Shown: piece after piece, positions 19,753 to 52,915 of the stretch
Layout: each line of letters opens with the position of its first letter
Numbering within the stretch: position 1 is the first letter of the stretch
From: Terriglobia bacterium
Lineage (GTDB): Bacteria > Acidobacteriota > Terriglobia > Acidiferrales > UBA7541
Reading direction: 5' to 3'
Assembly: GCA_963695545.1 (NCBI GenBank)
Contig: OY968796.1
Coordinates: 2,080,001 to 2,144,000, forward strand
Length of the DNA: 64,000 nt
The notes under the pieces: generated by a model
Databases searched by the model: none
What the model was told of the DNA's origin: nothing
The model's input: only the letters and a program-made list of their open reading frames with translations
Made by a program: the position numbers and the translations under genes

Positions 19753-19800
19753 CTTGCCCAACGCCCCATTCCGCCAAAACCCTGGCACCTTTTTACCCAC

Positions 19801-24759: not shown

Positions 24760-26175
24760 GTGGGAACAGCGGCGGAGCAATTCGATTTGATTGTGATTGG
24801 TTCGGGTCCCGCGGGAGAAAAGGCCGCTGCCCAGGCTGCCTATTTCGGCAAACGAGTGGCTTTGGTCGAGCGCGGCGCGCTGGGCGGAGCGGGAATCAAT
24901 ACCGGCACGGTGCCGAGCAAGACGCTGCGCGAGTCGGCGCTCTATTTTTCGGGTTTGCGGCAGCGCGGCCTCTACGGCATCGATTATTCGTTGCGCGAAG
25001 GGCTGACGGTCGAAGGCTTTATGCATCGCAAGGACGCGGTGGTCGCCTGGGAGCGCGAGAAGATCGCGCTAAATCTCGAAGCTCATAAGGTCACGCTGAT
25101 TCGCGGAGAAGCCAGCTTTGAGGATGCGCGCACGATCTCCGCGCACGCCGAAGGCACGGAGCCGCGCATGCTGACCGCCGAGGTGATCCTGATCGCCACG
25201 GGCTCGCGCCCGCACCGCGCGCCGGAAATTCCGTACGACGACCAATTCGTTTTCGATTCCGATTCGATTCTGAAAATGGATCGCATCCCGAAGAGCATGG
25301 TGGTCGTCGGGGGTGGGGTGATTGGATGCGAGTACGCTTCGATCTTCACCGCGCTGAGCGTGCAGGTTGTTCTGGTGGATGGGCGAGACCGGCTGCTGCC
25401 GTTTCTCGATTCGGAAATTTCCGAGCGTCTGGCTGAGCGGCTCGCGGGACTCGGCTTGGAATTTATCGCGAACGAGCGCATGGCGTCGCTCGAACGCACA
25501 GCGGCGGGCGTGCGTATGACACTGAAATCGGGCAAGGTGATCGAGCGCGAAACCGCTCTATTCGCCGCGGGGCGCCGAGGCGCGGTAGAAGGTTTGCATC
25601 TCGAACGCGCGGGCTTGGAGCTGAACGCGCGCGGCACACTCGACGTCGACGCGAGCTACCAGACCGCCGTGCCGCACATTTACGCCGCGGGCGATGTGAT
25701 CGGTTTTCCGGCACTGGCCTCGACTTCGATGGAGCAGGGACGCTTGGCGATCTGCCACGCATTCAATTTCCCTTACAAGAAGCGCCTCGCGTCTACGCTG
25801 CCCATGGGAATTTACACCATCCCGGAAATTTCAGCGGTAGGCGAGAGCGAGGAAAGCTGCCGCGAAAAGGGAATTCCATGCAGCGTGGGGCGCGCGCGCT
25901 ATTCCAACAACGCGCGCGGGCAAATCACGGGCGATTCAACCGGCTTGCTGAAGCTCGTCTTTCGCCGCGACAACAAACAATTAGTCGGCGTGCACATCAT
26001 CGGCGAAAGCGCCACCGAGCTGATTCACCTGGGCTCGGCCGTGCTCGAATCCGGCGGCACAATCGATTTCTTCATTGATCTGGTTTTCAACTATCCGACG
26101 CTGTCCGAGATGTATAAGTACGCCGCGTACGACGGCCTCGGAAATCTTGCGGGGCACAAATTGCGCGAGGGTTAG
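24760..26175 (+). CDS. sthA: Soluble pyridine nucleotide transhydrogenase
   Basis: GSGPAG, GTVPSKTLRE, GGGVIGCEYA, GDVIGFPALASTSMEQGR, IYTIPEIS, FNYPTLSEMYK. Confidence 0.88.
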   Translation: MGTAAEQFDLIVIGSGPAGEKAAAQAAYFGKRVALVERGALGGAGINTGTVPSKTLRESALYFSGLRQRGLYGIDYSLREGLTVEGFMHRKDAVVAWEREKIALNLEAHKVTLIRGEASFEDARTISAHAEGTEPRMLTAEVILIATGSRPHRAPEIPYDDQFVFDSDSILKMDRIPKSMVVVGGGVIGCEYASIFTALSVQVVLVDGRDRLLPFLDSEISERLAERLAGLGLEFIANERMASLERTAAGVRMTLKSGKVIERETALFAAGRRGAVEGLHLERAGLELNARGTLDVDASYQTAVPHIYAAGDVIGFPALASTSMEQGRLAICHAFNFPYKKRLASTLPMGIYTIPEISAVGESEESCREKGIPCSVGRARYSNNARGQITGDSTGLLKLVFRRDNKQLVGVHIIGESATELIHLGSAVLESGGTIDFFIDLVFNYPTLSEMYKYAAYDGLGNLAGHKLREG

Positions 26176-26193: not shown

Positions 26194-27756
26194 CTAGAGC
26201 GTCGGGTTGCGCGGAAATAGTTGATAGGGCAGCGTGACGCCGTCGATTGAAATTTGGTCGGCGCGAATCGCGGCGGGCGCTTCGTAGCCTGCGCCGCCGC
26301 CCGCGGCGACGTAGTCGTCCTGATCCACGCCATCGCCGCTAACGCCCAGCCCGCCGACGAGCACGCCATTCAGATAAAGCGGCACGGAGCCGGGGAAAAA
26401 AACCACGCCGCTTTGGTGCGGACCAGGCGCTTGAAAACCTTGCGTGCATGGATGCGCCGTGTCCTGCTGAAATAAATTGAAGAATGGCCCGGGGTTCGTG
26501 CCGTCGATGCCGGGCGGAAACAGCGGCTGTGCGCCGTAGCCGATGGTTCGACTGGTGACGGCGGTGCCGATCGGCACGCCTTCGAGATCCGCGGCGGTAC
26601 GCGTGGCGCTGTTGAAATAAACCATGTTGCGCGCTTTGGTCGCGGCGACATCGATGCTGAAGACGGTGGAATCGGGCATGCGGTAGAGACCGATGATCGT
26701 GCCGTCGAGATCGGCGACTGCGATGACCATTTCGGCTGCCGAATTTTCAGGGATACGAAGTACGGCGCGCGTGGTGTTGGCGGTCGCGACGGCGTTCATG
26801 ATGATTTGATTTACTTCCGACGCGGAGAGCCCGCCGAGCGGTCCGGCATTCGGCCCAACGAGATAATTCTCGGGCGGTTGCGCGGGGCTGGCGGTGGGGC
26901 CGACGAAGAACGCGCCGTCGGCGGCTCCGGTGGTTGTGCCCGCTGGCTGCGTGGTTTGGTCCACGAACGGCACGGTGATGCCGCCGATCACGACGGCGCC
27001 GGGCGGGGCCGGAGTCGGACCGAAGCCGTTCGACGTGGCCGCGGTGTAGGCGGCGAATTCGGCGACGTCGGTTGAAACGCCCGCCACGCCGATCCCGCCG
27101 ACCACGACTCCGCTTTCAAAAATCGGCACGCCGCCGGGATCGACCACCGTCGGATCGCTGTCGTAGAGATCGGCTTTGCCGGTGGCGATGCCCAGACTTG
27201 GGGAGACGCCGTCAAGCGCAGTCGGCGGCGCAATGGATTGTCCCGGCAGGAAATTCGACGAAAGCGCGCAGCCGCGATTGCTGTTTTCAATGGCGTAGAG
27301 CGGGGCGTTCGACGCTCCGGCGACGCCGGGCGGGAAATGAACGCCGCTCAAAAAACGCACGCTGCGCGAGGAAATGGGCGCCTGATCGTTGCTGAAAAAT
27401 GCGGCGGTGCGAGCGAGAGAAACCGCAAGTTCGTTTGTGTCGACCGCGGCGCCAAAATTGCCGGGCGTGGTCGCGGGCGCGGAGGGTTTTCTATAAACCG
27501 CGAGGACGCGGCCCGCGCGATCGGAAACTGCGATGACCATCGTTTCGACGTTCGCGGCTTGCGCCGCGGCCACCACGAGCGATTGAACCTGGCTGGCCGT
27601 AAGATTCGGCGATGACGCGGGAGGAGGAACCTGCGTGACGGATGGAGCGCCGGTCGCTCCGCCGCACGCTGAAAGTGCGAGCGCCGCGGCGAGCGTTAGC
27701 GCAAACGCCAGCGGGGCGCGCTGTGGACGACGGCTGCCGTGCGAAGTCTGGTTCAC
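26194..27756 (-). CDS. Lipoprotein with tandem GlcG/HbpS-like heme-binding domains
   Basis: Lipobox LSAC; two repeats IAVSDRAG..ARTA..GGVPIF..VVGGIGVAG and IAVADLDG..KAR..GSVPLY..LVGGLGVSGDGVDQDD. Start is approximate. Confidence 0.82.
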   Translation of the reverse strand: MNQTSHGSRRPQRAPLAFALTLAAALALSACGGATGAPSVTQVPPPASSPNLTASQVQSLVVAAAQAANVETMVIAVSDRAGRVLAVYRKPSAPATTPGNFGAAVDTNELAVSLARTAAFFSNDQAPISSRSVRFLSGVHFPPGVAGASNAPLYAIENSNRGCALSSNFLPGQSIAPPTALDGVSPSLGIATGKADLYDSDPTVVDPGGVPIFESGVVVGGIGVAGVSTDVAEFAAYTAATSNGFGPTPAPPGAVVIGGITVPFVDQTTQPAGTTTGAADGAFFVGPTASPAQPPENYLVGPNAGPLGGLSASEVNQIIMNAVATANTTRAVLRIPENSAAEMVIAVADLDGTIIGLYRMPDSTVFSIDVAATKARNMVYFNSATRTAADLEGVPIGTAVTSRTIGYGAQPLFPPGIDGTNPGPFFNLFQQDTAHPCTQGFQAPGPHQSGVVFFPGSVPLYLNGVLVGGLGVSGDGVDQDDYVAAGGGAGYEAPAAIRADQISIDGVTLPYQLFPRNPTL

Positions 27757-27945
27757 TGTTGTCTTGTGTACGTAACACATCGCTTGCGGGGGCTCAAGGA
27801 GCGCGGTGATAGCGAGCGCGAAAGAATGAATTGCGGCCGGTGGCACCCACCGTGTCGATTTTCGTTTCAACCGGCGGCTGGTCGAGGCAAAATCCCTGCT
27901 GTCGAAGCGGCGCCGATTTCTGAGCCGGCGTCCGAGGCGAGGCGG

Positions 27946-30240
27946 ATGCGCCGAGCATCCCTGCGAATCAAAATCGATTTGCTTTTGGCTGCGCTGGCGT
28001 TGCTCGTGGCGGCGACTGCCGCGACTGCCGCCACTGCGGCCACGCCGCGGCGCGCGAGGCATTCGCGCGGCGCGCGACATACGCATCACGCACAGCAGGC
28101 TGGCGCGCATCACGCGCAACACCCCGCGCCGCGCAAACGGCCGCGAGTTGAATCTCACCCACGACCGAAAACGAATTTCCGCGCTCTTCCGCAGCAGCAA
28201 ACTTCTACTGCCGAATTCCAAGGACAACGATTGCCGCGACAGACGGCGCCGCGTACGGCGGCGATTGAAGGCGAAGTGCGCGACGCGAGCGGGCGCGCGG
28301 TGGTTGGCGCAACGGTGCGCTTCGATTCCACGGAAGTGAACACGAGCGCGGACGGCGTTTTTCGCATACGCGATCTTGCGCCTGGAAATTATTCGCTCAC
28401 GATTGAGAGTCCGGGATACGCGGCGGAAGTGCGCTCTGATGTGTCGCTCGCGGCGGGCGATGTTTTCATTGTCGAGTTGACGCTCGCGCCGTCGGAGATG
28501 GCGAGTGCTCCGCGATCGCGATTGCCGCGGCAGCCGGAGCTTGGTCCTCCGACGCCGGCGATTGCAGTGGCGATGCTGGGTTCCTACCACGTGTTGCCGC
28601 GACGACCAGACGCCGATCCGAATTGGAGTGAGCCGCAACCTGAGTCGCTGCCGCCGGCGCAGGAAGTTTTCGCCGCGGCGGCGGACCGTTGGGACATTCC
28701 GATGCCGAATGCGCGGCGCTACGGTGACGGCGGCGAATATCCTTACGTCAAATCGCACTGGTACGATCCATTCGATCGCAACAAATTGAAGGGCGATCAG
28801 CCGATCATCGGCCAGCAAACGTTTTTGAACTTGACGGCGAAAAGCGAGACGGATGCCGACGGCCGATGTTTGCCGACGCCCACAAACGTGAGCCCGGCGC
28901 GGCCGGGCAGCAGCGAATTTTTCGGGCAGTGCGATCAGTTCGGGTTGAGCCAGACATTTTTCTTCACGGCGGATTTGTTTCACGGCGATACATCGTTTCG
29001 CCCGGTGGACTGGCGGATTCGCGTGACGCCAGCGGTTAACGTGAATTATTTGAAGGTCGAAGAGCTGGGCGTGGTGAACGTCGATCCGCGCGACGGCACT
29101 ACGCGCTTGGACGCACATTTTGGATTGCAGGAAGCGTTCGTCGAGGTGAAGCTGCACGATCTCGATTCCGATTACGATTTTGTTTCAGTGCGCGCCGGGA
29201 TCCAGCATTTTCAGAACGATTTTCTGGGATTTATTTTCGCGGACGATCAGCCCGGCGTGCGCTTTTTTGGCGATTTGCATTCGGATCGTTGGGAATACAA
29301 CGCGGCGTACTTCGATCTGCTGGAAAAGGATACGAACAGCGATCTGAATACGTTCAATGCGCGGCATCAGCAAGTGATCGTGGCCAATTTATACATGCAG
29401 GATTTCGGGCGGCCTGGTTACACCACGGAATTCAGCGTTCTCTACAATAAAGACGACGGCAATCTGCATTACGACGACAACGGATTTCTGGTGCGGCCGG
29501 CGGACATTGGCTCCGAGCGGCTGCACAATGTGCGCGCCGCGTATTTGGGCTGGACGGGCAGCGGGCACTTTGGGCGATGGAACGTGAGCCATGCGTTTTA
29601 TCAGGCGCTGGGCGAGGACGATTTCAATCCGATTGCCGGGCGGCCGGTGACCATCGACGCGCAGATGGCGGCGCTGGAGATTTCGTGGGATCGCGATTGG
29701 ATGAGAATTCGCGCGTCGGCGTTTTACGCGTCGGGCGACGCGAATCCGCGCGATGGGCGCGCGACCGGTTTCGATGCGATCGTCGATCAGCCGGATTTCG
29801 CGGGCGGCGATTTCAGTTTCTGGAATCGCGAAGGCATTCCGCTTACCGGCGCAAACGTTTTCCTGACCACGCCGGGCAGTTTGCTTCCGGATTTGCGCTC
29901 GAGCAAATTCGAGGGGCAGGCGAATTTCGTGAATCCGGGAATTTTTCTGGCGAATGGCGGCGCGGATTTCAATTTGACGACCAAACTGAAGGGTGTGGTG
30001 AATGTGAATTTTCTGCGATTTGAGGATACCTCGCCGCTTGAATTCGTGCTATTTCAAACGCCCATTCGCAATACGATCGGCGAGGATTACAGTCTGGGAG
30101 TTGTCTATCGGCCGCCGCTGACGGAAAACATTGTGGTCACGGGCGGCGCCGCGGCGCTCGATCCGGGCGCGGGGTTTCGCGATATTTACACGGGCCACTC
30201 GCTTTTTTCTCTCTTTGGCAATGTTCGCGTTCAATTCTAA
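27946..30240 (+). CDS. Outer-membrane beta-barrel protein with carboxypeptidase-regulatory-like N-domain
   Basis: Signal peptide, [28 protein letters not shown], alternating beta-strands, C-terminal VRVQF. Confidence 0.8.
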
Positions 30241-30259
30241 TTCGGGGCGGCGCCGCGGC

Positions 30260-33200
30260 GTGGCTCGCGTAAGGCGGGCTGCACCGTGCGCGGCGTTAGC
30301 CGCGATGTGCGCTTTTCTGGTGGCGGGCGCGTACGTCGAGGGCGCGAGCGGTCGTCAGGGCGGCGACGCGGCTGCGGAATCGCGATTGCTGCAGCAGACC
30401 GAAGACGACGTGGCGCGAAAAAGCGCGGGCTGCGTTTCGTGCCACACGCAAACCGACGAGCCCACCATGCACGCGACAGGTACGGTGCGATTGGGTTGCA
30501 CGGATTGCCACGGCGGGCGCGCGGATTTGCTGCTGCCGGCTGGAGCGCAACCGGGTTCGGCGGCATACGAGCAGGCTAAGCGCACGGCGCACGTTTTGCC
30601 GCGCGATTCGCAGGATGCCGATCGCTCGGCCGAACCTGTGCGCGCGTACGCGGCTTGGCTGCACGAAACCACGGAATACGTGCGCTTCGTGAATCCGGGA
30701 GATTTGCGCGTCGCAGCGCAAACGTGCGGCGAGGCGGGGTGCCACGCTTCGGTGGTGCGCAATGTTGCGACGAGCATGATGACTACCGGCGGAATGCTGT
30801 GGGGCGCGGCGCTTTACAACAACGGCGCGTATCCTTACAAGGACTTGCGATTCGGCGAAAGTTACGCCGCCGACGGCACGCCGCAGACGGTGCGCACGAT
30901 TCCTCCGCCGACGCCGGAGGAAACGCGCGAGAAGGGAATTATCGCGGAGGTGACGCCGCTCGAACGCTGGGAAATTTCGCAGCCGGGCAACGTGCTGCGC
31001 GTTTTCGAGCGCGGCGGCGGGAAAAAAGGCGAAATCGGGTTGCCCTCGCCCGATGAGGAACCCGGCAAGCCGGACGACAAATTGAGCAGCCGCGGATTCG
31101 GCACACAACTGCGCACCGATCCGGTTTTTCTGGGACTGCAGAAGACGCGGCTGCTCGATCCGATGCTTTCGATGCCGGGGACGAACGATCAGCCGGGCGA
31201 TTATCGCGCGAGTGGCTGCACGGCGTGCCATGTGATTTACGCGAACGACCGCTCGCCGGAGCATTCGGCGCAATACGCGCAGTACGGCAACATGGGATAC
31301 AGCGCGTCGAATGATCCGACGATTCCGCACAATGAATCCGGACACGCAATTCGCCATGTTTTCACGCGCTCGATTCCATCGAGCCAGTGCATGGTGTGCC
31401 ATATTCATCCGGGCACGAATATGGTGGCCACGTATTTTGGGTACACGTGGTGGGACAACGAATCCGACGGTAAGGAGATGTATCCGGCGGCGCAGCGAAA
31501 TCCGAGCGACGAGCAGCGCTTTGAAGTTGCCACGCGAAATCCCGAAGGAGCGGCGGCGCGCGGGTTGTGGGGCGACGTGAATTTCTTGTCGCAGACGGGC
31601 AGCGCAGAATTCAACGCCAAGCTGAAGCAAACGCAGTTCGCGGATTTCCATAGTCACGGGTGGTTGTTTCGCGCGGTGTACGCGCGCGATCGGCAGGGAC
31701 GCTTGCTGGACGCGGGCGGAAACGTTGTGCCGTTCGACGATCCGCTGAAGTTCAGCAAGGCCGTGCACCTGGAGGACATTCATCTTGAAAAAGGAATGCA
31801 GTGCGTGGATTGCCATTTCGAGCAAGACGCGCATGGCACCGGTTCGCTGTACGGCGAATCGCGCGCGGCGGTCGAGCTTGATTGCGTGGATTGCCACGGG
31901 ACAATTTCCGGGCGCGCGTCGCTGGTGACGTCGGGCCCGGCGGCGCCGCCGGGCGGAACACATCTCGAGGGATTGCGCACACCGTGGGGGCAGCGGCGAT
32001 TTGAATGGCGCGAGGGACGGCTCTATCAGCGATCGATGATGGACCCGCACGAGGAATGGGAGATCGTACAGACGCTCGATTCGATCACGCCGGGCAACGC
32101 GCACTACAACGAAAAATCGCGCTTGGCGAAAACGCTGCGGACCGATGGCGTCACCTGGGGCAATGTTCCGTCGGACGCGGCGCTGCTGGCGCACGCGAAC
32201 AGCCGCATGGCTTGCTACACCTGCCACACTTCGTGGACGCCGAATTGTTTCGGTTGCCATTTGCAGATGACGGCCAATCAGCGGCGGCCGATGCTGCACA
32301 ACGAGGGTTTGGTGACGCGCAACTGGACTTCTTACAATTTTCAAGTGCTGCGCGACGACGGTTACATGCTCGGCGTGGACGGCACGGTGACTGGGCATCG
32401 GATCGCGCCGGCGCGGTCGTCGTGCGCGGTGCTGGTCAGCTCGCAGAACGCGAATCGCGAATGGCTTTACTACACGCAGCAAACAGTTTCGGCGCCGGGC
32501 TTTAGTGGCGAGGCGTTTTCGACGTTTGTGCCGCACACGGTGCGCGCGCGAGAGACCAAGACATGCACGGATTGCCATGTTTCTGCCGCGGGCGACAACA
32601 ACGCGTGGATGGCAATGCTGCTGCTTCAGGGCACGAACTTCGTGAATTACATGGGGCGCTATGTTTACGTGGCGGACGGGGCGAAAGGTTTTTCGGCCGT
32701 GGTTACGGCTGAGCACGATGAGCCGGAGGCCGTGTTCGGCAGCGATCTGCAGCGCATGGCGTATCCGGAAGATTATCGGCAGCACGTGGCGCGCGGCGGG
32801 AAGCTGACCACGGCGTTTGGTCACGCTGGGAACGTGCTCGATCTGCAATTGCGCGGCGAATATCTTTATGCGGCGCTGGGCGCGGGCGGATTCCGCGTCT
32901 ACGATGTCGCGAACATCGACAACAAGGGATTCTCCGAGCGCACGGTGACCGCCCCGGTTTCTCCGCTGGGCCAGCGACTGTACGTGAAAACGAAATACGC
33001 AACCGCGGTGGCCACGCCGACTACGCTGGCCGTCGATCCACTGCGCGCGCAGCATCCGGAAAACGAAGAGCAGAAAATTCATTTGATGTACGGATTTCTT
33101 TACGTGACCGATCGAGAAGAAGGCTTGATCGTTGTCGGCAACCCGGATTTGGAGTCGAAAAGCCCTGGCGTCGGCACGCTGCTCAATGGAAATCCTGAGG

Positions 33201-34081
33201 ACAATTTCATCGGCCGCGCCGTGACGTTCAACCCCGATGGCATTCTGCACGGCGCGCGGCGTATCACGATCGCTGGCACGTACGCTTACATTTTGTGCGA
33301 TCGCGGGTTGGTGGTTGTGGATCTGGATAATCCGCTCGAGCCGCGCGTCACGGCGGAAATCGGTGCGCCGGCGCTCGTCGATCCGCAGGGCGTGGCGGTG
33401 CAATTCCGGTATGCGTTCGTCGTTGATCGCGAGGGATTGAAAGTTCTCGACGTGACCGACCTTGCGCATCCGCGCGTTGTGCCTGGCGCAGATGTGGCGC
33501 TGGAGGACGCGCGCAACGTCACGGTTTCGCGCACGTACGCTTATGTGCCGGCGGGCCGACACGGAATCGCGATCGTGGACGTGACGCGGCCGGAGCATCC
33601 GCGCTTGAATCAAACTTTTACCGCCGATGGCGCGATCAACGATGCGCGCGACGTGAAGATCGGCGCCGTGGCTGGGGGCGTTTTTGCGTACGTGGCCGAC
33701 GGCGCGAACGGTCTGCGAATTCTGCAGGTGCTTTCGCCGGAAGATTCGCCCGACTCGTATGGATTTTCGCCGCCGCTGCGGCCCAAGCTGATCGCGACGT
33801 ATCGAACGCCGGGCGCGGCGCTGGCAGTGTCTCGCGGGATCGATCGCGATCGGGCGGTGGATGAAAGCGGCAATCAGCTCGCCGTCTTCGGGCGACGCGG
33901 CGCGCGACCTCTCAATCGCGAAGAAGCCGAGGGACTTTATTTGCGCGGCAGTCAGCTTTACACGGTTACGGATTCGCCGCCGAGCCAGCCTCTCGCGCTG
34001 GGTTCAACAGCCGCATCGAGCGGATCGGCCGCGGCCGGGCTTGAGAATTGGGTCGATCGATTGCGCGCGCATTTGCGTTAG
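30260..34081 (+). CDS. Multiheme cytochrome c (9 CxxCH + 1 CX4CH) fused to an LVIVD-repeat beta-propeller
   Basis: CVSCH, CTDCH, CGEAGCH, CTACH, CMVCH, CVDCH twice, CYTCH, CFGCH, CTDCH; then YVYVADG, FRVYDV, LVVVDL, LKVLDV, IAIVDV repeats. Start is approximate. Confidence 0.9.
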
Positions 34082-34094
34082 TTCAGGGAGCGGC

Positions 34095-34868
34095 ATGGGA
34101 ATTGTCCGCAAAATCCAGGGCGCGTTCGGCGGCGGCGCGATTCCGCAGACCATTTGCTGGGGAACGCTCTCACAGGCGGAGCTTCTGATTCCGTGGCAGA
34201 ACAAAAATACGCGGCGGTGGGCGCACAGATGGGTACGGCGCCATTTCTCGGAGTTGCCGCTGGGCGCGTTGGATATTGTGGACGCGGGATCGGGCACATC
34301 GAATCGTCTGCTTGATTGGTATCGGCCGCGCGTGCGGCACGCTTATTTGCTGGATTTTCTGGTCGAGCCACACGAAGAGGGCAATTCGAGTTTCGTTCGC
34401 GCCGATCTCGAAAAGGGCATGCCGGTTCCCGACGCTTGCGCGGATGTGGTTACGAGCGTTAGCAGCGTCGAGCATCTTTCCGAGGCCGGGCAGATGCTGT
34501 TTCTTAGCGAAGCGGCGCGGGTGTTGCGTCCGGGCGGACGCGTGATTGCGACTTTCAGTTACGTCTTCGCGTTGGATGCGCAGTCATTGAAAATACTTTC
34601 GAGCAATCCCGTGCTGGCGGGGAATGGATTCGCGATTTCGGCGCGGCCAAACTTGCGCAGAATGCTCGAACGGGCGCCGGAACTTGCGCCTCCAGTCGCG
34701 CCCGTGTGGAAGAATTTTCCCGGCTTCGAGGGATTCGCGGAGAGCGCGATTCTTGCCGATCGCGACATTCTCTTGGACCCGATATTTTCCGGTGATCCCG
34801 GCGCGAAGGAAGTGAATGCGCTGGGGAAACGCTACGGAGAAATCGGCATTTATCTGGTGAAGAAATAG
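34095..34868 (+). CDS. Class I SAM-dependent methyltransferase
   Basis: IVDAGSG, ADL...P, DVVTSVSSVEHL, EAARVLRPGG; GGGAG RBS. Confidence 0.85.
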   Translation: MGIVRKIQGAFGGGAIPQTICWGTLSQAELLIPWQNKNTRRWAHRWVRRHFSELPLGALDIVDAGSGTSNRLLDWYRPRVRHAYLLDFLVEPHEEGNSSFVRADLEKGMPVPDACADVVTSVSSVEHLSEAGQMLFLSEAARVLRPGGRVIATFSYVFALDAQSLKILSSNPVLAGNGFAISARPNLRRMLERAPELAPPVAPVWKNFPGFEGFAESAILADRDILLDPIFSGDPGAKEVNALGKRYGEIGIYLVKK

Positions 34869-34923
34869 GTTCCGGCGGGTCGGCCGCCAAAAATCAGCTC
34901 GATTACAAGCCGGCGCTTGCATT

Positions 34924-36309
34924 TCAGCCGCCCCCGCCGGACGCTTTCCCCGGCGCGCGAATCAGGCTCGACAATAATTCGTCAATCGATGCGTGCCCCG
35001 GCGCATATTTGCGCAGCGTGGGATCGTGATAGGTGTGGCACTCAAAGCAGCGCGCTTCGGCGGCGCGCGGTCCTTCGTGGTGGCATTGGCGGCACGTCGT
35101 GATTCCGGGGAGCAGAATGTCCGAGCTCTGCTGGCTCGTGCGCGCCGCGGTGTGACAACTCTCGCAGGTGACGAGCTGGTGCTGCGCGTGATCGAACTTC
35201 GCGAGCGGGAAAAAACGAAGCGTGACATTCGATGGCGCTACGCTGGGCAACGTGGCGTTGAGCGTCGCTAGATCTGGCAGCGTCATGACCGGCGGCACGG
35301 CGCTTGCTTGCTCTTGGCCCGGAGCGAAATTTAGCGTGTGACATTCTTTGCAGGTTTTGCGCCACAGAAGATCCTCGGCTTCCGCGGTGTGCTCGGCGAC
35401 CCATTCGGGCGGCGTCAGCAGGCGATAAACGGCGGGAACTGGGCGGCGCGGCAGATCGCGATTTGGTTGGCGCAATTCGCGCAGCTCGGCCGGGTGCGCG
35501 GCGATGTAGGTTTGGAATTTTGCGATGATGAACGCCTGAATTCGCTGCGGCGTATCGTGCCGGACTTGATCTGTGAAGCGTTTGTCGAATTGCAACGTGT
35601 GGCACGACGCGCAAGTTGCAGCATAAGTTGCCGGCTGCATTGTCGCGCCCATCGAGCGTGGCTCGATCGCAGTCCCTGCGCTCGCGGCGTTAGCGAGCCG
35701 GTGGCAATCGCCGCAGACGAGCTGCACGTGGCCGCGTGGGCCGGTGAGATTCGCCTGCATGTGCAGTGCGTGATCGAACTTGATCGTTGTCGGATCGGGC
35801 TCCTCAGATCGCAGCACCGCAAACTCGGGGTGATCGCCCGAAAAACTTTCGATGTGCGCGGCGTAATGCGCCGGCCCGGCGCGCGTTTCGAGATTGGCGT
35901 GGCACTGCGTGCAGCTTGCGTCGCTCACCGCGGCGAGGCGAATCGCACCGCGGTGATCAGCGTGGCAGCTCGCGCAGGAGGGCGTGAAAGTCTGAGACGC
36001 CTGATGGATCGGGCCATCGTGGCAATCCAGGCAAGCGTGATCGGAAACGTTTCGCACGAAGAATAAGCCGCCGGCGGTGACGTGGCACGCGCTGCAGCGA
36101 TTTGAAAACACGGCGTGCGCGGCCGAGAGTTTTCCCGCGGAATACACCGCGTTGTCTCGTCGCGCGGCGTGCCAACCGAGCCAGGCAAGCGCGAGGACGA
36201 GCGCCGCAAGCGAGAGGCGGAATCTCCACTGGCGCAGCGGGCGCGGCTCGCGGAAATAATTGAGATCGATCCGCTGCGCGAGCTTTTTTGTTGTGCGCGA
36301 GCGCGGCAA
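34924..36309 (-). CDS. Membrane-anchored decaheme cytochrome c (c3-like)
   Basis: N-terminal TM helix; CSACH, CLDCH, CASCH, CTQCH, CGDCH, CASCH, CKECH, CESCH, CRQCH, CFECH; FDHxxH motifs. Confidence 0.92.
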   Translation of the reverse strand: MPRSRTTKKLAQRIDLNYFREPRPLRQWRFRLSLAALVLALAWLGWHAARRDNAVYSAGKLSAAHAVFSNRCSACHVTAGGLFFVRNVSDHACLDCHDGPIHQASQTFTPSCASCHADHRGAIRLAAVSDASCTQCHANLETRAGPAHYAAHIESFSGDHPEFAVLRSEEPDPTTIKFDHALHMQANLTGPRGHVQLVCGDCHRLANAASAGTAIEPRSMGATMQPATYAATCASCHTLQFDKRFTDQVRHDTPQRIQAFIIAKFQTYIAAHPAELRELRQPNRDLPRRPVPAVYRLLTPPEWVAEHTAEAEDLLWRKTCKECHTLNFAPGQEQASAVPPVMTLPDLATLNATLPSVAPSNVTLRFFPLAKFDHAQHQLVTCESCHTAARTSQQSSDILLPGITTCRQCHHEGPRAAEARCFECHTYHDPTLRKYAPGHASIDELLSSLIRAPGKASGGGG

Positions 36310-36318
36310 AGATTGCTC

Positions 36319-37182
36319 CTAATATCGCAGCGCCACGAAGGCGTGGGCTGCGCCAAGCAAAATCAGCGCAATCGAAAGCGGCACGTGAATCAGAAGCCAG
36401 CCGTGCAGCCAGCGGTGCAGGTGCGCCTGGCGCGTCAGTTGGCGCGCTTCCTCGCAAATATTTTCGAGATCGTCGACCGCCGCGTGCAGGGGCGGCGGCA
36501 CGAGAAGCCGCACGTTGGAAAATGCGCGTTCGGCTTGCGAGCGATCGGCCAAGGGATTCGGTCCGGGCGCGCGCTCGAGATACGGCCGGATTTCGCGGTC
36601 GTAGAACGCGACGAGGGGCGCGGCAGGTGCTGCGGTCGTCGCGGCTGCGCCTTCTTCGTCGGGATTTTCGGCCACGGTGATCGCGCTGGCGCGCGCGATT
36701 TGTTCGGCGGCTTCGGCGCGAAGTTGCGCACGGACGTGCTCGATTTCTTCGTAGATAGTCTCAAGCGGGACATCGCGCGTCATCGTGGCGGGCATGAAAT
36801 GTTGTAAGACCGCGCCGAAGATTCCGCTGGCGATCACGATTACAAGCAGCCAGAGCAGCATGATGGTGAGCGGACCGCCCGCGTGGAACCCGGCGTGAAG
36901 CAAAATCAGCGGGAGACTCAGCAAGCCGAGCCACAGATGGCCCCGCATCCAGGTTTGCGCGCGGCCCAGACGCCACACGGGAACTTTTTTCCGCGCGCCG
37001 AGCAGGCCGGCGAAAATCATGAACGCGAAGCCGACGACTCCAAACGCCAATCCGAGCGGCGTGCCGCCCATCGGTTCCGCCGCGGAGGCCGCGGGCCGGC
37101 CGAGCGCATACAAGACGCACGCGGCGCCGAGAATTACGCACGACGCGATGAGCCACCCTGTGTGCGTGCGGTCAATTCGCAT
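36319..37182 (-). CDS. Polytopic membrane protein with intramembrane His (possible cytochrome b)
   Basis: About 5-6 hydrophobic helices; WMRGHLWLG, LLHAG, WLLIHVPLS, AAH. Confidence 0.75.
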   Translation of the reverse strand: MRIDRTHTGWLIASCVILGAACVLYALGRPAASAAEPMGGTPLGLAFGVVGFAFMIFAGLLGARKKVPVWRLGRAQTWMRGHLWLGLLSLPLILLHAGFHAGGPLTIMLLWLLVIVIASGIFGAVLQHFMPATMTRDVPLETIYEEIEHVRAQLRAEAAEQIARASAITVAENPDEEGAAATTAAPAAPLVAFYDREIRPYLERAPGPNPLADRSQAERAFSNVRLLVPPPLHAAVDDLENICEEARQLTRQAHLHRWLHGWLLIHVPLSIALILLGAAHAFVALRY

Positions 37183-37200
37183 GCTGAGGCGCCGCCATTT

Positions 37201-39375
37201 TCATTTCGCGATTTTTCCGTCGCGGCTCACCGGCGCGCCGACAAGCGAACCAAAAAATTGCCGCGGCTCGACGCGATGTGCGGCGTCGTGTGGGCAGGCA
37301 TAGACACAACTCGGCTCGGCATGGTCGGTGCAGAGATCGCAGGAAGTGGCTTTTTTGCGGACCACGGCGCGCTTGCGGCCGGGATGATCGGGATCGTCGG
37401 CCTGCACGGTGAACGGATGCAAATTAATATTGCCGTACGGGCAATTCTGGGCGCAGAGGCCACAGCCGATGCACCAATCCTCGATGATCACTTCGAGCGA
37501 ATTGCGGCGGCGAATCGATCCCACCGGACAGCCCACCATGCAGAGAGGATCGCGGCACTGCCGGCAGGAAGTAGCCACCAAATATTTATCGAAGCGCAAT
37601 CCTTCGCGGATCAGGCGCGTGACGCCGTCGTGCGCATCGGCGCAGGCGTTCACGCAGGCGTCGCAGCGCGTGCAGCGCTCGAGATCGAGAACGAGCAAGC
37701 TCTGCGCTTCCATCAGACCTTGCGCGAGAAAACTTTCGAGCGGCACGCTGCCCAGCACCGCCATGCGTTCCTGATTGGCCTGCTGACGCTCCTGCGCGAC
37801 GGCTTCGAGTCCCTGGCGCACGGAAGGGAATCGTTCGACCATGGCGCGGAATTCGTCGCCTGGGATGCGCACCACCTCAGCGTGATCGAGAGCCGTGCAC
37901 GTGGCCGTGCGCGCGCTTCCGCCGAGCAGGCCGATTTCGCCGAAATAATCGCCGCGCGAAAGATAGGCCAGCACGAGTTCGCCGCCGGCGTGCCGCTCGG
38001 AAACTTTCACGAATCCCAGGCGCACCAGATAGAAACTGTCGGCTGGTTCGCCTTGGCGGCAAATCACCTGGCCGGGGGCGAAACTCGAAAGCTCGACGCG
38101 CTCGCGCAGGCGATCGAGGAATTCCTTGTCGAGCGCGCGGAATAATGGAACGTTGCGCAAATGATCTTCAAGCGCGCGCTGGCGATAGGTGCGATCGAGC
38201 TGCGCACGCAGAGTTTTGTTCTTGCGCATGGTGTCCAGAACGTTGCGCAGCATTTCGAGCACCGTGCAATCGGTTTCGGCGCGCACGGTGGCCGAACGCG
38301 GATAGAAATTCATGCAGGTCATTTCGCCGAAAAGATCGCTGGGGCCGAGCTCGGCGACGGGGTGGTCGTAATCGAGATCGACGGGCGCGTCGATGGGAAT
38401 CGAGCGGCGCGTGACGTCTTCCGCGCGGTGATCGCCGGCCCGGCCAACCAGGAAACTGCCGAGGCGGCTGAAAAATCCGCGCTCACCGCCCGAAGTTTTC
38501 ACGTGCGCCATCGGGCTTGAGATCGAGACGCTGACTTTGCCTTCGAGGATGTAAAAAGCCGTCGAACCGAAATCGCCTTCGCGGCAGACGATTTCACCTT
38601 TGCGGAAACGGCGCTTGATCACCGCGTTTTTGTTCAGCTCGAGGAACGTGCCGGAAACGTTGTGAAACACTGGCAGAGCGAGCAACTCTTCGGTCGTTGC
38701 GCTTTCCGCACCATGCTCTGCGCCGAGCGCTGTGCCAACCACGAACTTGTTTGTCAGCGCGCCTGTTGGGCACGAGACCATGCATTCGCCGCACGAAACG
38801 CACGTGGATTCGCCCATCGGCGCGCCCGCGTCGAAGGCGATGTCGGTTGCGCCGCCCTTGCCCATGCGCGCCAGCACGAAATTGCCGCGGATATCGCCGC
38901 AGCCGCGGATGCAGCGATCGCAGAGAATGCAGGCATCGTGCGCCACGGCGATCGCAGGAGAAGAATCGTCTTGCGGCCGCGCCGCGCGGCGCGGGAATCG
39001 CGACGCGCCGATTCCGGCCGCGCGCGCCAAGGTTTCGAGTTCGCAATCGCCCGACTGCTGCTGCCGCGGGCAGGGCGAAGGATGGTCGGCCAACAGCAAT
39101 TCGAGCAGCGTGCCGCGCGCCGCGGTAACGCGCTCGGAGGACGTCGTGACGACCATGCCCGGCTCCGCCGGCCGCACGCACGACGCCGCGAAAACACGTG
39201 CGCCGACGTCGACGACGCACACGCGGCACACGCCGACCGGCGTTTCATTCTGCTGATGGCACAGCGTGGGAATCGCGATGCCGTTCATGCGCGCCGCGTC
39301 GAAGACGGTCGTACCGGGCGCGACGGCGATCTTGCGCCCGTCGATTGTGAGCTCGATCAGGGAAGCGGCGTTCAT
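37201..39375 (-). CDS. Fe-S/cNMP fusion: NuoG-like N-domain + two cNMP-binding domains + DmsB-like 4x[4Fe-4S] domain
   Basis: PTLCH..GVCRVC..ASC; CILCDRC, CVSCGEC; FGEM..PRSATV and FGEI..RTATC; CTRCDAC, CRQC..C, CIGCGLC, CDLC..C. ATGA overlap with the upstream gene. Confidence 0.9.
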   Translation of the reverse strand: MNAASLIELTIDGRKIAVAPGTTVFDAARMNGIAIPTLCHQQNETPVGVCRVCVVDVGARVFAASCVRPAEPGMVVTTSSERVTAARGTLLELLLADHPSPCPRQQQSGDCELETLARAAGIGASRFPRRAARPQDDSSPAIAVAHDACILCDRCIRGCGDIRGNFVLARMGKGGATDIAFDAGAPMGESTCVSCGECMVSCPTGALTNKFVVGTALGAEHGAESATTEELLALPVFHNVSGTFLELNKNAVIKRRFRKGEIVCREGDFGSTAFYILEGKVSVSISSPMAHVKTSGGERGFFSRLGSFLVGRAGDHRAEDVTRRSIPIDAPVDLDYDHPVAELGPSDLFGEMTCMNFYPRSATVRAETDCTVLEMLRNVLDTMRKNKTLRAQLDRTYRQRALEDHLRNVPLFRALDKEFLDRLRERVELSSFAPGQVICRQGEPADSFYLVRLGFVKVSERHAGGELVLAYLSRGDYFGEIGLLGGSARTATCTALDHAEVVRIPGDEFRAMVERFPSVRQGLEAVAQERQQANQERMAVLGSVPLESFLAQGLMEAQSLLVLDLERCTRCDACVNACADAHDGVTRLIREGLRFDKYLVATSCRQCRDPLCMVGCPVGSIRRRNSLEVIIEDWCIGCGLCAQNCPYGNINLHPFTVQADDPDHPGRKRAVVRKKATSCDLCTDHAEPSCVYACPHDAAHRVEPRQFFGSLVGAPVSRDGKIAK

Positions 39376-41084
39376 GCGATTTTTGCTCGCGGCGCGCTGC
39401 CCTTCGCGTCGGGAAAGCACACGCCCGCCGGGCACTCGCGGCGCGTCAAGTGAACTTCGACTTCTTCGCGGAAATGTTTGAGTACGGATTCAATCGGCGC
39501 GGGCACGATTTGCCCGAGCCCGCAAATTGATGTAAGCCGCATGGCTTCGGAAAGTTGGCGCACGAGTTCGAGATCAGCGGCCCAATCGGTTCGCGCGCCC
39601 TCGGTCCAGCGCGTCAGCAGGTCGGTCATTTTCTGCGAGCCCACGCGGCACGGAACGCATTTCCCGCACGACTCATTGCGGAAAAAACGCACGGAGTTCA
39701 GCGCCATGTCCAGCATGCAGGTGCGATCGTCGCAGACCACGATCGCGCCGGAGCCGAGCATCGAGCCGGCCGCGGCCAAGGATTTGAAATCGAGCGGCAC
39801 ATCGGCCATCGACGCGGGCAAATATCCCGACGACGGCCCCGACGGCGCAAATGCTTTGAGCGGCCGGCCGCCGAGCACGCCGCCGGCGTAACGGAAAATT
39901 AATTCAGAAATCGGCGTGCCCATGGGCACTTCAAAAACGCCGGGCCGTTCGACGCGTCCGCTGACGCCGACGAATTTCAAACCGGCCGCACCATTCGGGC
40001 CGCCCAAGCCGGCCGATTTGTACCAATCGACGCCGCGCGCCAAAATTTGCGGCACGTTGGCGAATGTTTCGACGTTGTTGATCACGGTCGGCTTGTTCCA
40101 GAGGCCCTGGGCCACCGGAAACGGCGGCTTATTGCGCGGCTCGGCGCGCTTGCCTTCGATGGCTTCGAGCAGCGCGCTTTCTTCGCCGCAAATGTATCCG
40201 CCGGGGCTGACGAAAATTTCGAGATCGAAATCGAGATCCGTGCCGAGCACGCCGCGGCCGATAAGTTTCTCGCGGCGGCAGCGCGCGAGTTCCTCTGCGA
40301 GAATGTGCTCTTGCTCGTCGTATTCGTGGCGAATATAGAGGATGCCTTTTCGCGCGCCGGTGATGAGTCCGGCGAGAACCATGCCCTCGATCACGAGGTA
40401 CGGCAGATTGGTGAGCAGAAAGCGATCTTTAATCGTGCCGGGTTCGCTTTCGTCCGCGTTGCACACGACATATTTCTCCGCGCCGACCGCGCGGCGCACG
40501 AGCGACCATTTCATTTCCGTGGGAAAACCCGCGCCGCCCATGCCGCGCAGGTTGCTGGCCTTCAGCGTGGCAAGCGCGCCATCCCAATCGCGCGTGCGCG
40601 CGAGAGTGCGCAGACACGCGTATTTTTCGGCGCCCGGGTAAGGATCGGAGGCGCAATCCGAACGTCGCGCCGCGCGCGGCGTTTCGGGCAGCTCCGCGCC
40701 CGCGAGCGCACAACGCACAAGCGCGTCGGCCTCAGGTTCGGTGACGCCGCTATAAATGCGATCGTTGATCGAAAGGGCGGGCGCGGCGTCACAGCGGCCG
40801 AGGCACGACGCGTCGCGGATGGAGACTTCCCGCGGCGATGCGCCCGCGAACCGCCGCTCGAGCGAAGATTTCAGTTCGCATGCCCCGCGCAAATGGCAGG
40901 ACATATCGCCGCACACTTTCACTTCGGCGCGCGCCGGCGGCGCGAGATGAAAATGGGGATAGAAGCTGGCGACGCCGTGCAGCCGGCTGATGGGAACGTC
41001 GATGCGCGCGGCCAGCGCCGCAAGTTCCTCGGCTGAAATGTAGCCGTGCTCTCGCTCGATCGCCTTCAGCTCTTCAAAGATCAA
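39372..41084 (-). CDS. NuoE-NuoF fusion (NAD(P)H dehydrogenase/diaphorase module)
   Basis: VASFYPHF, CGDMSC..CLGRC (2Fe-2S); LRGMGGAGFP, NADESEPGT, YICGEESAL, ESCGKCVPCR..C (FMN/4Fe-4S); TTG start with GGGAG RBS. Confidence 0.92.
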   Translation of the reverse strand: MIFEELKAIEREHGYISAEELAALAARIDVPISRLHGVASFYPHFHLAPPARAEVKVCGDMSCHLRGACELKSSLERRFAGASPREVSIRDASCLGRCDAAPALSINDRIYSGVTEPEADALVRCALAGAELPETPRAARRSDCASDPYPGAEKYACLRTLARTRDWDGALATLKASNLRGMGGAGFPTEMKWSLVRRAVGAEKYVVCNADESEPGTIKDRFLLTNLPYLVIEGMVLAGLITGARKGILYIRHEYDEQEHILAEELARCRREKLIGRGVLGTDLDFDLEIFVSPGGYICGEESALLEAIEGKRAEPRNKPPFPVAQGLWNKPTVINNVETFANVPQILARGVDWYKSAGLGGPNGAAGLKFVGVSGRVERPGVFEVPMGTPISELIFRYAGGVLGGRPLKAFAPSGPSSGYLPASMADVPLDFKSLAAAGSMLGSGAIVVCDDRTCMLDMALNSVRFFRNESCGKCVPCRVGSQKMTDLLTRWTEGARTDWAADLELVRQLSEAMRLTSICGLGQIVPAPIESVLKHFREEVEVHLTRRECPAGVCFPDAKGSAPRAKIA

Positions 41085-41352
41085 AGCCGCGCTCCCGGCG
41101 CTCCGAAAACTGTCGGGGCTGCCGTACCGCGCCGACGAGGACCAGAGCAAAACGGTATAACAAACCGCGGGCCGCGGGTCTACGGGCGTCGCCGGTATTT
41201 GTTGCGAGGCCGCGAAAGAGGTAACCGCCCCGTTGATCTCCGCGAAGGCCGCGTTGACTTCGCGCGGCACGCAAAGTATAAGCAAACGACAACGCGTCGT
41301 GCAGTCCGCGGAAATTTTCGGCCGCGCGCGCCGCATTCTGGCTGAGAATTGA

Positions 41353-42771
41353 ATGAAAACACGTCCCGACGGCAAGCGCCCGCTCAATTTTCATTCGACC
41401 TTGCTCGCCGCCGCGGTTTCCGTCTTCTCCGTCGCGGCCCCGCTGCTTCTAAGCACCGTGCTCTGCGCCGACGGTTCAAGCAACGCGCCGCGTCCTGCAG
41501 GCGCCACAGTTGAGCCCTCGAAATATGTCGGGCCCGGCGGCTGCGCCGCGACGAGTTGTCACGGCAGCGTGAAACCGCGCGCCGACACTCGAATTTTCCA
41601 GAACGAATACAGCATCTGGGTCGTGCAGGACAAGCATTCGCGCGCCTACACGGCACTGACCTCGCCCATCGGCGAGCGCATCGGGCGAATTCTTGGCATC
41701 GGCAAATCCGAAGAAGCGCCGAAATGTCTCGCGTGCCACGCGCTCGACGTTGCGCCCGAAGCGCGCGCCAAAACTTTCGATTTGAGCGATGGCGTGAGCT
41801 GCGAGAGTTGCCACGGGCCCGCTTCGGCGTGGCTCGGTCCGCACACCACGCGCGGCTGGACGCACGCGCAATCGGTGGCCGCGGGAATGTACGACACGCG
41901 CGATCTGGTGCTGCGCACCGAGAAATGTTTGACGTGTCATCTGGGGACGCAGGAAAAATTCGTGGATCACGAAATGCTCGCCGCCGGCCATCCCGATCTT
42001 TATTTCGAGCTCGATTCGTTTTCCGCCGTGATGCCGCGCCACTGGAAGACGCCGCGCGAATCCGCGCCGGGCGTGCCCGAAACCGGAGCGGACGATCCGT
42101 GGTTCGGCGTGCGCGATTGGGCTACGGGGCAAGCCGTGCAGTTGCGCGCGGCGCTCGATCGCGTGGCCTGGCGCGCGCACGGACCGAACTGGCCGGAATT
42201 TTCGGAGCTGCAATGTTTCTCATGCCACCACGATTTAACGCCGCCGGAACAGAGCTGGCGCCAGGAGCGCGGCTATCCCGGCCGCCGCCCCGGTGATCCG
42301 CCGTGGAACGCGTCGCGCTACGCGGTGTTCGGCATTCTGGCGCACGAAGTCGATGGGCCAACCGCTACGGAGCTCGACGCGCACATGACGGAACTCGCGA
42401 AGCTCATGAGCGCGCTCAATCCGGACCGTGACGCCGTGGCGTCCGCTGCCGCAAGCGCGCGCGTGCTGGCTGATCGCCTCGTCGCGCGCATCCAGGCGCA
42501 GCCCTACGATCAGGCGAGGACCGCGCGCCTGCTGCTCGAAATATCCGGCCACGCCGAGGAAATTTCAGCGCAGGGCGAGCGCGCCGCCGAACAAGCGGCT
42601 ATGGCGCTCGATTCGCTTTTCATCGCATCGAGCCGAAACGCCGCACCGGCCAACGCCGCGGAAATCCGCGCCGCGATCAACGGCCTGTTTCAATTGCTCG
42701 AGAATCCCTCCGCATACGATCCAAACACCTTCGCCGCGCAAATGACGAAAGTGAACGCACTGCTGCGCTGA
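41353..42771 (+). CDS. Secreted multiheme cytochrome, c554/c552-like (4 CxxCH + 1 CX4CH)
   Basis: Signal peptide; YVGPGGCAATSCH, KHSRAY, CLACH, GVSCESCHGP, CLTCH, CFSCH; helical C-terminal domain. Confidence 0.9.
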   Translation: MKTRPDGKRPLNFHSTLLAAAVSVFSVAAPLLLSTVLCADGSSNAPRPAGATVEPSKYVGPGGCAATSCHGSVKPRADTRIFQNEYSIWVVQDKHSRAYTALTSPIGERIGRILGIGKSEEAPKCLACHALDVAPEARAKTFDLSDGVSCESCHGPASAWLGPHTTRGWTHAQSVAAGMYDTRDLVLRTEKCLTCHLGTQEKFVDHEMLAAGHPDLYFELDSFSAVMPRHWKTPRESAPGVPETGADDPWFGVRDWATGQAVQLRAALDRVAWRAHGPNWPEFSELQCFSCHHDLTPPEQSWRQERGYPGRRPGDPPWNASRYAVFGILAHEVDGPTATELDAHMTELAKLMSALNPDRDAVASAAASARVLADRLVARIQAQPYDQARTARLLLEISGHAEEISAQGERAAEQAAMALDSLFIASSRNAAPANAAEIRAAINGLFQLLENPSAYDPNTFAAQMTKVNALLR

Positions 42772-52545: not shown

Positions 52546-52797
52546 CCCCCCTACCCCCGGGGTGTTTTTTGGAAGTGTTGATTCTGCACGACTTTAAGTC
52601 CTTTGCGCCAGAACTGGTGATTCTAAAAGGTTTAAAATGCGATTTTTCAGAAGTGTTGATTCTGGAAGAGTTGCGGGTGAAAACGCCACGCGCGGTGCGA
52701 ATCTTTTGCAGCGAGGGCGTGCGTTCGCGATTCATCAAGAAGCATAACACGGAACATACCATTGTGTCAACATATATCGACATGCTATTCGAATAGG
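52546..52797 (-). repeat. Dispersed ~250-bp element, copy B
   Basis: Inverted copy of 19801-20051; CTATTCGAATAG palindrome at 52785-52796; TTGACA(52770)-18 bp-TATGCT. Confidence 0.93.
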
Positions 52798-52915
52798 ATG
52801 GATAGAAAAGAACCAGTTTCTAAGCGAAGGTACAGGGATAGGCTGGCCGTTCCACCCGGAATGCCGGAGTTTTATTACGCCGCGACCGAGGCAGCGGGCG
52901 TGGATGGCGGCCGCA

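Follow-up and report, generated by a model that had tools for sequence, protein, structure and literature searches.

We describe here a gene cluster in a 64,000-nucleotide stretch of Terriglobia DNA (the window; contig OY968796.1 of assembly GCA_963695545.1, positions 2,080,001 to 2,144,000) whose central gene encodes an iron-sulfur protein of 724 residues, hereafter the connector. This protein joins a NuoG/FdsA-type N-terminal module (N-module), two tandem cyclic-nucleotide-binding domains (CNB1 and CNB2) and a four-cluster C-terminal domain (C-domain), and its gene lies between those for a NuoE-NuoF flavoprotein and for a small inner-membrane protein followed by a decahaem cytochrome. We propose that the cluster could be an outlet, gated by cyclic AMP (cAMP), that passes NADH electrons to periplasmic multihaem cytochromes; judged from sequence, this composite reading has about an even chance. 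Its parts fare better: a conduit from NADH to cytochromes is probable, binding of a cyclic nucleoside monophosphate (cNMP) by the tandem domains is somewhat more probable still, and direct gating would be highly likely if both of these hold. The membrane protein and the decahaem, which an earlier sequence-only reading of the connector did not mention, define the system.

The connector is an intact gene coupled to NuoE-F

The connector gene (37201..39375, minus strand) is open throughout, with no internal stop. Its ATG at 39375 shares the sequence ATGA with the TGA stop of the upstream NuoE-NuoF fusion, and the overlap from which the sequence-only reading had deduced translational coupling is thus read directly. 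The open reading frame, Pfam and the cysteine positions likewise confirm the modules it had named, namely the N-module, two cNMP domains and a 16-Cys four-cluster domain. Pfam matches comprise Fer2_4 (residues 6-80), cNMP_binding (E 2e-41), Fer4 motifs within residues 604-698 and a weak Fer4_Nqo3 match, under the Pfam cut-off, at 140-208. An AlphaFold2 model built from 134 sequences reached a predicted local distance difference test score (pLDDT) of 87.8 and a predicted template-modelling score (pTM) of 0.83, which implies that the domains are placed relative to each other with fair confidence; fold searches with the whole model matched single domains only. Together, these features describe a protein like PtdE, a predicted cNMP-domain iron-sulfur protein discussed below, fused to a NuoG/FdsA-type N-module.

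A genome scan found at least 704 stretches related to the connector gene. Because the 120 best of 5868 database matches span 98-100% of the protein, at 73-93% identity, a frameshift or chimera is ruled out as its origin. A stray complex I fragment is ruled out by a separate, canonical NuoF-NuoG pair elsewhere in the genome. A search of viral contigs gave no match.

The N-module begins with a [2Fe-2S] domain (residues 6-80; 39136..39360, minus strand; Pfam Fer2_4, E 1e-17) whose ligands C39, C50, C53 and C66 are kept in 51/51 close and 55-58 of 61 distant homologues. Next comes a degenerate His-ligated [4Fe-4S] site, identified by homologue comparison (H98-x3-C102-x2-Q105-x5-C111; 39043..39084, minus strand). 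Gln replaces its second Cys in all 51 close homologues, distant members with the fusion mostly lack the remnant, and the connector thereby departs from the canonical motif HxxxCxxCxxxxxC, of which a copy lies elsewhere in the genome. This site probably holds no cluster. Complex I uses its His-ligated cluster as an exit; the likely exit of the N-module is instead a 2x[4Fe-4S] ferredoxin domain with C149/152/155/159 and C192/195/198/202 (residues 140-208; 38752..38958, minus strand), assigned from Pfam and conservation. The module's fold matches FdsA, HydA and HoxU with Z scores of 22-24. The nearest relatives found are the N-termini of Fdh-alpha-like molybdopterin enzymes (57-60% identity), which already have the same degenerate site. 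Against the NuoG model of NCBIfam the connector scores 135.7 bits (cut-off 470), and a molybdopterin-fold Pfam domain is absent.

The adjoining NuoE-NuoF gene (39372..41084, minus strand; assigned from Pfam, NCBIfam and marker residues) has an uncertain start, with a TTG near 41084-41150. By the criteria of Losey et al. (PMC7311640), electron-bifurcating enzymes of HydABC type have A/E232, M234, F367, GGPSG and extra C-terminal clusters in the beta subunit. Here NuoF has T/K in 76/76 loci and Y in 75/76 at marker positions, carries SGPSS rather than GGPSG, and ends after its N3-type cluster without extra C-terminal clusters. On these markers we reject bifurcation by NuoE-F.

Two cNMP domains with conserved phosphate-binding cassettes

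CNB1 (residues ~228-400; 38176..38694, minus strand) contains an insertion of ~55 residues and the cassette FGEMTCMNFYPRSA at residue 349 (38290-38331), and CNB2 (residues ~401-541; 37753..38175, minus strand) has a long C-helix and the cassette FGEIGLLGGSARTA at residue 478 (37903-37944). Both cassettes keep the canonical G-E...R-(S/T)-A pattern. Among cNMP domains, the best fold match of CNB2 is the cGMP-bound CNB-B of PKG II (Z 21.1; root-mean-square deviation 2.1 over 145 aligned residues). The tandem arrangement resembles that of the regulatory subunit of protein kinase A (PKA) and of PKG, the best named sequence match being yeast Bcy1 (E 6e-24); unlike those proteins, the system in the window has no kinase or channel.

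For conservation we used 150 representatives at 50% identity, from which 23 that lack a CNB1 or C-domain match or are poly-cNMP proteins, and eight fragments, were removed to leave 119 diverse homologues. The Gly, Glu and Arg of the cassette are intact in 108/119 for CNB1, in 93/119 for CNB2 and in both domains in 92/119, the CNB2 counts possibly being too low where insertions disturb the alignment. G350, E351 and R360 are some of the best-conserved residues of the cNMP domains, and 79 of 80 close loci share one and the same CNB1 cassette. The 80 are the best loci of the related stretches, mostly from Acidobacteria, each taken with 10-kb flanks. The sequence-only reading had pointed to a preserved phosphate-binding cassette in both domains, and the conservation of its residues in homologues sustains that claim.

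A modelled dock between the C-domain and a predicted di-haem membrane protein

The C-domain (residues 560-704; 37264..37698, minus strand) is a four-[4Fe-4S] domain of HycB/HydN type with 16 Cys between residues 568 and 694, of which 15 are invariant across the 119 homologues. Its description as DmsB/NrfC-like held for the four clusters and 16 Cys and failed for the family: it scores 43 bits against the DmsB model of NCBIfam (cut-off 214), NrfD/DmsC and molybdoenzyme partners are absent among the neighbours scanned, and the nearest solved relatives are HycB4 and HycB3 of HDCR (HycB4 E 3e-14) and HycB of formate hydrogenlyase. It shares the 16-Cys four-cluster layout with these proteins, as with HydN, DmsB, NrfC and NarH, and differs from the HycB/HydN type in being fused behind cNMP domains.

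Eighteen bases downstream of the connector lies the gene for a five-helix inner-membrane protein of 287 residues (36319..37182, minus strand), which corresponds to PtdF and to the inner-membrane protein (IMP) of PCC4 clusters. Its motifs, W78-H82-H96, W262-H266-H280 and SGIFG at 119, make up the PCC4 IMP signature of two WX3HX13H and SGXXG, which is present in 63/64 copies of the membrane protein examined and from which a di-haem b protein is predicted. No Pfam family matches the protein, including the ferric reductase/NOX family PF01794, although its His spacing fits. Profile and fold searches found no solved relative; the matches are to generic helical bundles and do not show whether the fold is new or of NOX/FRE type.

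Modelling connector residues 225-712 with the membrane protein gave a complex scoring 0.66, with the best of three controls at 0.00. The mark used for such models is reached by 116/157 solved complexes and 2/215 mismatched pairs and is a rough guide here, the alignments being custom-made. At least 81% of contacts are common to the runs, and the partner pLDDT is at least 80. In the modelled interface, connector residues 565-597 and 685-698 meet residues 61-79, 127-144 and 256-260 of the membrane protein; the interface centres on C568/C571/C574/C694 and includes the invariant W78 and P131 of the membrane protein. Its loops on the membrane protein are cytoplasmic by the positive-inside rule and adjoin H82 and H266. 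Because the profile and fold searches turned up no solved structure related to the membrane protein, it is not evident that the model recalls a similar solved complex. The model thus supports binding of the C-domain to the cytoplasmic face of the membrane protein. In NarH the cluster of the first motif faces the catalytic subunit; in our model it faces the membrane subunit.

The connector gene lies directly upstream of the membrane-protein gene in 80/80 loci, followed by the decahaem gene in 78/80 and preceded by NuoE-F in 78/80, the four misses being contig ends. The decahaem of the window (34924..36309, minus strand) is a membrane-anchored, PtdG-like cytochrome c with 10 CXXCH motifs.

A stable core with interchangeable inputs

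The sequence-only reading saw the cNMP domains as inserted within an Fe-S wire. The family does not bear this out: the conserved unit of the protein is cNMP-cNMP-FeS4, and the N-module has been gained or lost repeatedly. The 127 representatives that could be classed comprise 65 with the N-module, 43 stand-alone cores (some possibly truncated metagenome genes, which the genome-based L085, L086 and L115-L117 are not), 11 with another N-terminus and eight fragments. A FastTree phylogeny of 143 cores calls for 11 gains or losses of the N-module, nine or more of them forced by well-supported branches, and when the tree is rooted on the Pyr_redox-fused forms the N-module is absent from its deepest rows. 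In three genomes of one family, the same as that of the window, a core 70-74% identical stands beside a tetrahaem cytochrome, the membrane protein and the decahaem.

The stable unit of the system is the cNMP-cNMP-FeS4 core together with the di-haem-type membrane protein and the decahaem. From this comparison the core is the old part and its NADH input a modular one: in other lineages a Pyr_redox flavoprotein is joined to the core by fusion, is encoded close by or is absent from the neighbourhood. NAD(P)H inputs include NuoE-F with the N-module, as here, and a fusion of all these parts in P0184. Pyr_redox is fused to the core in L095, L098 and Sphingobium, and a separate FAD oxidoreductase lies nearby in L089, L091 and L094.

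Further domains occur in some relatives. P0129 has a PilZ domain inside CNB2, and others carry FHA at either end or a third cNMP domain; such additions or a whole NuoE-F fusion are found in P0129, P0137, P0146, P0153, P0154, P0157, P0163, P0177 and P0184. The FHA domains of relatives join the connector, the decahaem or the flavoprotein, and in two Terriglobia loci a stretch coding for an FHA domain separates NuoE-F from the matched part of the gene (L006:9629-9859, L007:9605-9850). Five cores (P0133, P0135, P0141, P0149, P0156) have N-terminal extensions of 200-400 residues with no Pfam match.

A sister cluster occurs in a cultured organism, on plasmid pMSHV of Sphingobium herbicidovorans MH (L120:10720-25164). 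It encodes a Pyr_redox-cNMP-cNMP-FeS protein, the membrane protein, an FHA-decahaem, a phosphodiesterase-like protein, an LVIVD cytochrome, a porin-like protein and a haem-binding protein, and is matched by 12 Sphingobium records.

Possible sources of a cyclic nucleotide

Across 61 genomes of one order, a class III cyclase is encoded in 21/21 genomes that carry the system versus 16/40 that do not, and within three mixed genera in 14/14 versus 4/11, a co-occurrence whose significance is overstated, the carriers being kin rather than independent. The cyclase lies within 3.3 kb of the connector in 4/21 carriers and within 30 kb in 6/21; in two more genomes of the phylum the distances are 11 and 19 kb. 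The adjacent cyclases of relatives resemble a CHASE2 cyclase encoded in the genome of the window and carry Lys and Thr at the positions that set specificity, a pair typical of enzymes that act on ATP. In Sphingobium herbicidovorans MH, a gene for a CpdA/SpdA-like phosphodiesterase (below the cut-off) directly follows the decahaem gene; tblastn found no match to it in the genome studied here or in the other loci.

Because the cassette residues are conserved and class III cyclases co-occur with the system, control of the connector by cAMP is plausible, and that part of the switch proposed in the sequence-only reading stands. Its placement between the two Fe-S halves is another matter: the switch need not sit there, because relatives without the N-module and NuoE-F keep both cassettes.

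In the genome of the window the CHASE2 adenylate cyclase gene stands in a row with those for a PP2C phosphatase and an FHA protein (L083:9772-14337, at ~454.8-459.3 kb); L119 contains the same trio.

A possible gated outlet and its alternatives

The outlet would work as follows. Judging by its motifs, co-translated NuoE-F would oxidise NADH at flavin mononucleotide (FMN) without bifurcation. Electrons would then pass from the NuoF [4Fe-4S] cluster to the [2Fe-2S] and on to the two [4Fe-4S] clusters of the N-module, a route of FdsA/HydA type, known from structures of those enzymes, that we favour because the His-ligated exit cluster of complex I is degenerate here. They may next move to the four-cluster C-domain, whose C568/C571/C574/C694 cluster docks, in the model, beside W78 and H82 of the membrane protein. 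From there, motifs and gene order suggest passage through two b-haems across the membrane to the anchored decahaem, and from it through the tetrahaem and nonahaem cytochromes to the porin. Such outward flow would be redox-downhill and would dissipate the membrane potential, which would be a reason for a gate. cAMP made by the CHASE2-type adenylate cyclase may bind the tandem domains and swing their C-helices in the manner of the PKA regulatory subunit, shifting the geometry between donor and C-domain or between C-domain and haem. Alternatively, the switch might act on the docking of whichever donor is present, or on how electrons are passed to the membrane haem protein.

Several observations weigh against this scheme. 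Stray aligned residues of the fold match put the CNB1 hinge helix near the position of the next cluster domain in FdsA, a weak hint that in the connector model the helix occupies the usual exit face of the N-module and the C-domain does not. In five genomes that retain the core, membrane protein and decahaem (the three same-family genomes and two more), searches for the N-module and NuoE-F gave matches of 30-46% and no orthologue of either, so that the NADH input appears dispensable there. Neither cassette is intact in 10/119 homologues, and a deep clade of seven stand-alone members has lost the cassette Arg from CNB1 and CNB2 alike and keeps the cluster. The conserved Cys354 of the CNB1 cassette helix (38314-38316, minus strand) could serve another signal, such as a redox or nitric oxide (NO) sensor, or a hinge contact. 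The CHASE2 cyclase of the genome lies 1.66 Mb from the connector locus, no cyclase was found within the 10-kb flanks of the 80 loci, and the four tightest cyclase links all come from one genus.

The Arg-less clade includes L087, L088, L090, L092, L093 and L094, and L090 and L094 sit in pentahaem-octahaem-decahaem clusters resembling the published ptd order. Close relatives without the N-module or orthologous NuoE-F retain both cassettes.

A broader version of the cAMP-gated outlet sees a widespread bacterial machine comparable to NOX, in which cAMP, bound by the Fe-S wire itself, allosterically opens a quinone-independent path from cytoplasmic NADH to the cell surface, with interchangeable flavoproteins and with phospho-Thr and cyclic di-GMP inputs in relatives. 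A second messenger would then control the export of respiratory electrons directly; this we put forward tentatively, as less probable than not. The same accessory domains could mean that the complex is a hub for signalling or assembly, in which cAMP (with phospho-Thr and cyclic di-GMP in relatives) controls how the complex is assembled, which partners it recruits or what redox-sensing output it gives, and not how fast electrons flow. The FHA domains, the PilZ domain inside CNB2 of P0129 and the third cNMP domains of relatives would suit this role, as would Ser/Thr kinase genes adjoining L086 and L093, the grouping of the genome's own cyclase with FHA and PP2C genes, and the stand-alone cores with no obvious donor. 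Nevertheless, Pfam finds no DNA-binding, kinase or other output domain in the cluster, and an FMN/NADH module, seven to nine clusters and more than 20 haem sites would be a large outlay for sensing alone, which makes the hub an unlikely explanation.

Slightly less likely is inward flow, or quinone exchange by the membrane protein, with the Fe-S protein and NuoE-F reducing NAD+ or forming a side branch to the quinone pool. Diaphorase modules are reversible. He et al. (PMC5566968), whose account also weighs against an outlet, model the opposite, inward and quinone-linked flow for PCC4, which they found in genomes of Fe(II) oxidisers, and propose the IMP as a quinone-active cytochrome b. However, inward flow that ends at NAD+ would call for a donor with a potential far below -320 mV and would run against the membrane potential, and Pfam finds no pumping subunits encoded at the locus.

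Equally improbable is a cNMP fold that serves as a structural spacer, or senses something else (a thiol, NO or metal at Cys354, or another nucleotide), with cAMP not regulating the wire: one clade lacks both Arg residues, Cys354 is kept in 106/119 homologues, nearly as well as the cassette Arg, and the CRP-fold domains of DNR, CooA and FNR bind other effectors, whereas G350, E351 and R360 belong to the best-conserved residues of these domains, and cyclase co-occurrence and the phosphodiesterase-like neighbour point to a cyclic nucleotide.

cAMP is known to steer bacterial respiration mainly through transcription factors. If the gated outlet is real, a messenger that acts directly and allosterically on an electron wire would add a new level of control. 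Abundant soil bacteria commonly carry the system (21/61 genomes sampled from the order), and it could give them a way to deliver electrons from NADH to humics or iron. Bioelectronic sensors, too, could make use of a natural ligand-gated electron conduit, and a sister version is available in the cultured host Sphingobium herbicidovorans MH.

Relation to known systems

The type of cluster is already in print, as PCC4 and ptd, both predicted from genomes. The function of ptdABCDEFG is stated to be unknown, and PtdE is described as a cNMP and Fe-S protein with two clusters (Elbon, Stewart, Glass; bioRxiv 10.1101/2023.11.21.568154). In the ptd cluster a cNMP-domain Fe-S protein precedes a membrane protein described as ferric-reductase-like and then a decahaem, and genes for a tetrahaem and a porin lie nearby; our locus has the same arrangement, with a putative porin, a likeness drawn from the published description rather than from comparison of sequences. 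Unlike the PtdE described there, the protein in the window has a NuoG/FdsA-type N-module and four C-terminal clusters; NuoE-F takes the place of PtdC, an FAD/NAD(P) oxidoreductase; the place described for the pentahaem PtdA is filled by a 9-haem LVIVD protein and an HbpS-like protein; and the host resembles soil Acidobacteria rather than marine bacteria. cAMP gating is not part of the proposal made for ptd in that description. The LVIVD protein shows no similarity to the pentahaem proteins of L091 and L094, and the porin-like gene of the window has no match to the gene beside the pentahaem in these loci.

With PCC4 subgroup II (He et al. 2017, PMC5566968) the locus shares an IMP with two WX3HX13H motifs and SGXXG, an upstream Fe-S gene and 4- and 10-haem cytochromes; it has a putative porin where PCC4 has a porin, and differs in lacking the 5-haem cytochrome. 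The words 'cyclic' and 'cAMP' do not occur in the main text of that paper. The system would work like PCC4 and ptd and fails strict membership, having no pentahaem and no PtdC. If our reading is right, it would supply these uncharacterised clusters with a defined input of electrons, a direction of flow and a regulator that can be tested. A fusion fed by NuoE-F and the N-module, or cNMP gating, was not found in the literature outside subscription journals, where the descriptions of ptd and PCC4 were the only ones to turn up, though the ptd and PCC4 supplements may show the architecture. The uet cluster of Tenderiales was considered as the same system and ruled out as a different one.

Like NuoEFG, HoxEFU and FdsBA, the locus brings together NuoE-F, [2Fe-2S] and 2x[4Fe-4S] modules; unlike them, it has no molybdopterin, H-cluster or hydrogenase partner, its His site is degenerate, and cNMP domains follow. 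No catalytic subunit of a hydrogenase or formate dehydrogenase is present among the neighbours scanned or the recurrent neighbours of the 80 loci. By analogy, NOX5-type oxidases offer a messenger-gated flow from NAD(P)H through a di-haem transmembrane protein; their acceptor is O2, here a decahaem is proposed instead, and no NOX/FRE fold match of the membrane protein was obtained.

Other genes and features of the locus

Divergently from NuoE-F runs the gene for a PtdD-like tetrahaem cytochrome resembling c554, with four CXXCH and one CX4CH (41353..42771, plus strand), which occurs in 72/80 loci. On the other side of the decahaem, the window encodes a secreted cytochrome with nine CXXCH and LVIVD repeats (30221..34081, plus strand; Pfam and motif count), found in 33/80 loci within the 10-kb flank, and a putative outer-membrane porin with an N-terminal carboxypeptidase-regulatory-like domain and a presumed barrel (27946..30240, plus strand); both have homologues in distant versions of the cluster. 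An HbpS/GlcG-like haem-binding protein with a lipoprotein-like N-terminus (26194..27780, minus strand; Pfam HbpS-like) is also clustered with the system in relatives. A promoter scan of 34700-41500 found no sigma-70-like promoter, and a terminator-like hairpin (34892-34870, minus strand) lies 3′ of the decahaem gene. Sequencing runs listed as holding the sequence include none from RNA, which does not bear on expression either way.

A gene for an S-adenosylmethionine methyltransferase (33861-34868, plus strand) between the LVIVD cytochrome and the decahaem is present in 0/80 related loci and is probably a local insertion. A Pyr_redox (pyridine nucleotide-disulphide oxidoreductase) gene (25021-26175, plus strand), ~11 kb away, abuts the HbpS-like gene. 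The genome has 11 frames with at least three CXXCH, including, elsewhere, proteins with 7, 8, 9 and 10 haem motifs. The window also contains a dispersed 270-nt repeat in two inverted copies, 80% identical (19782-20051 and 52547-52816), whose ~135-nt 3′ part has 19 matches in the genome and resembles a small mobile or repeat element.

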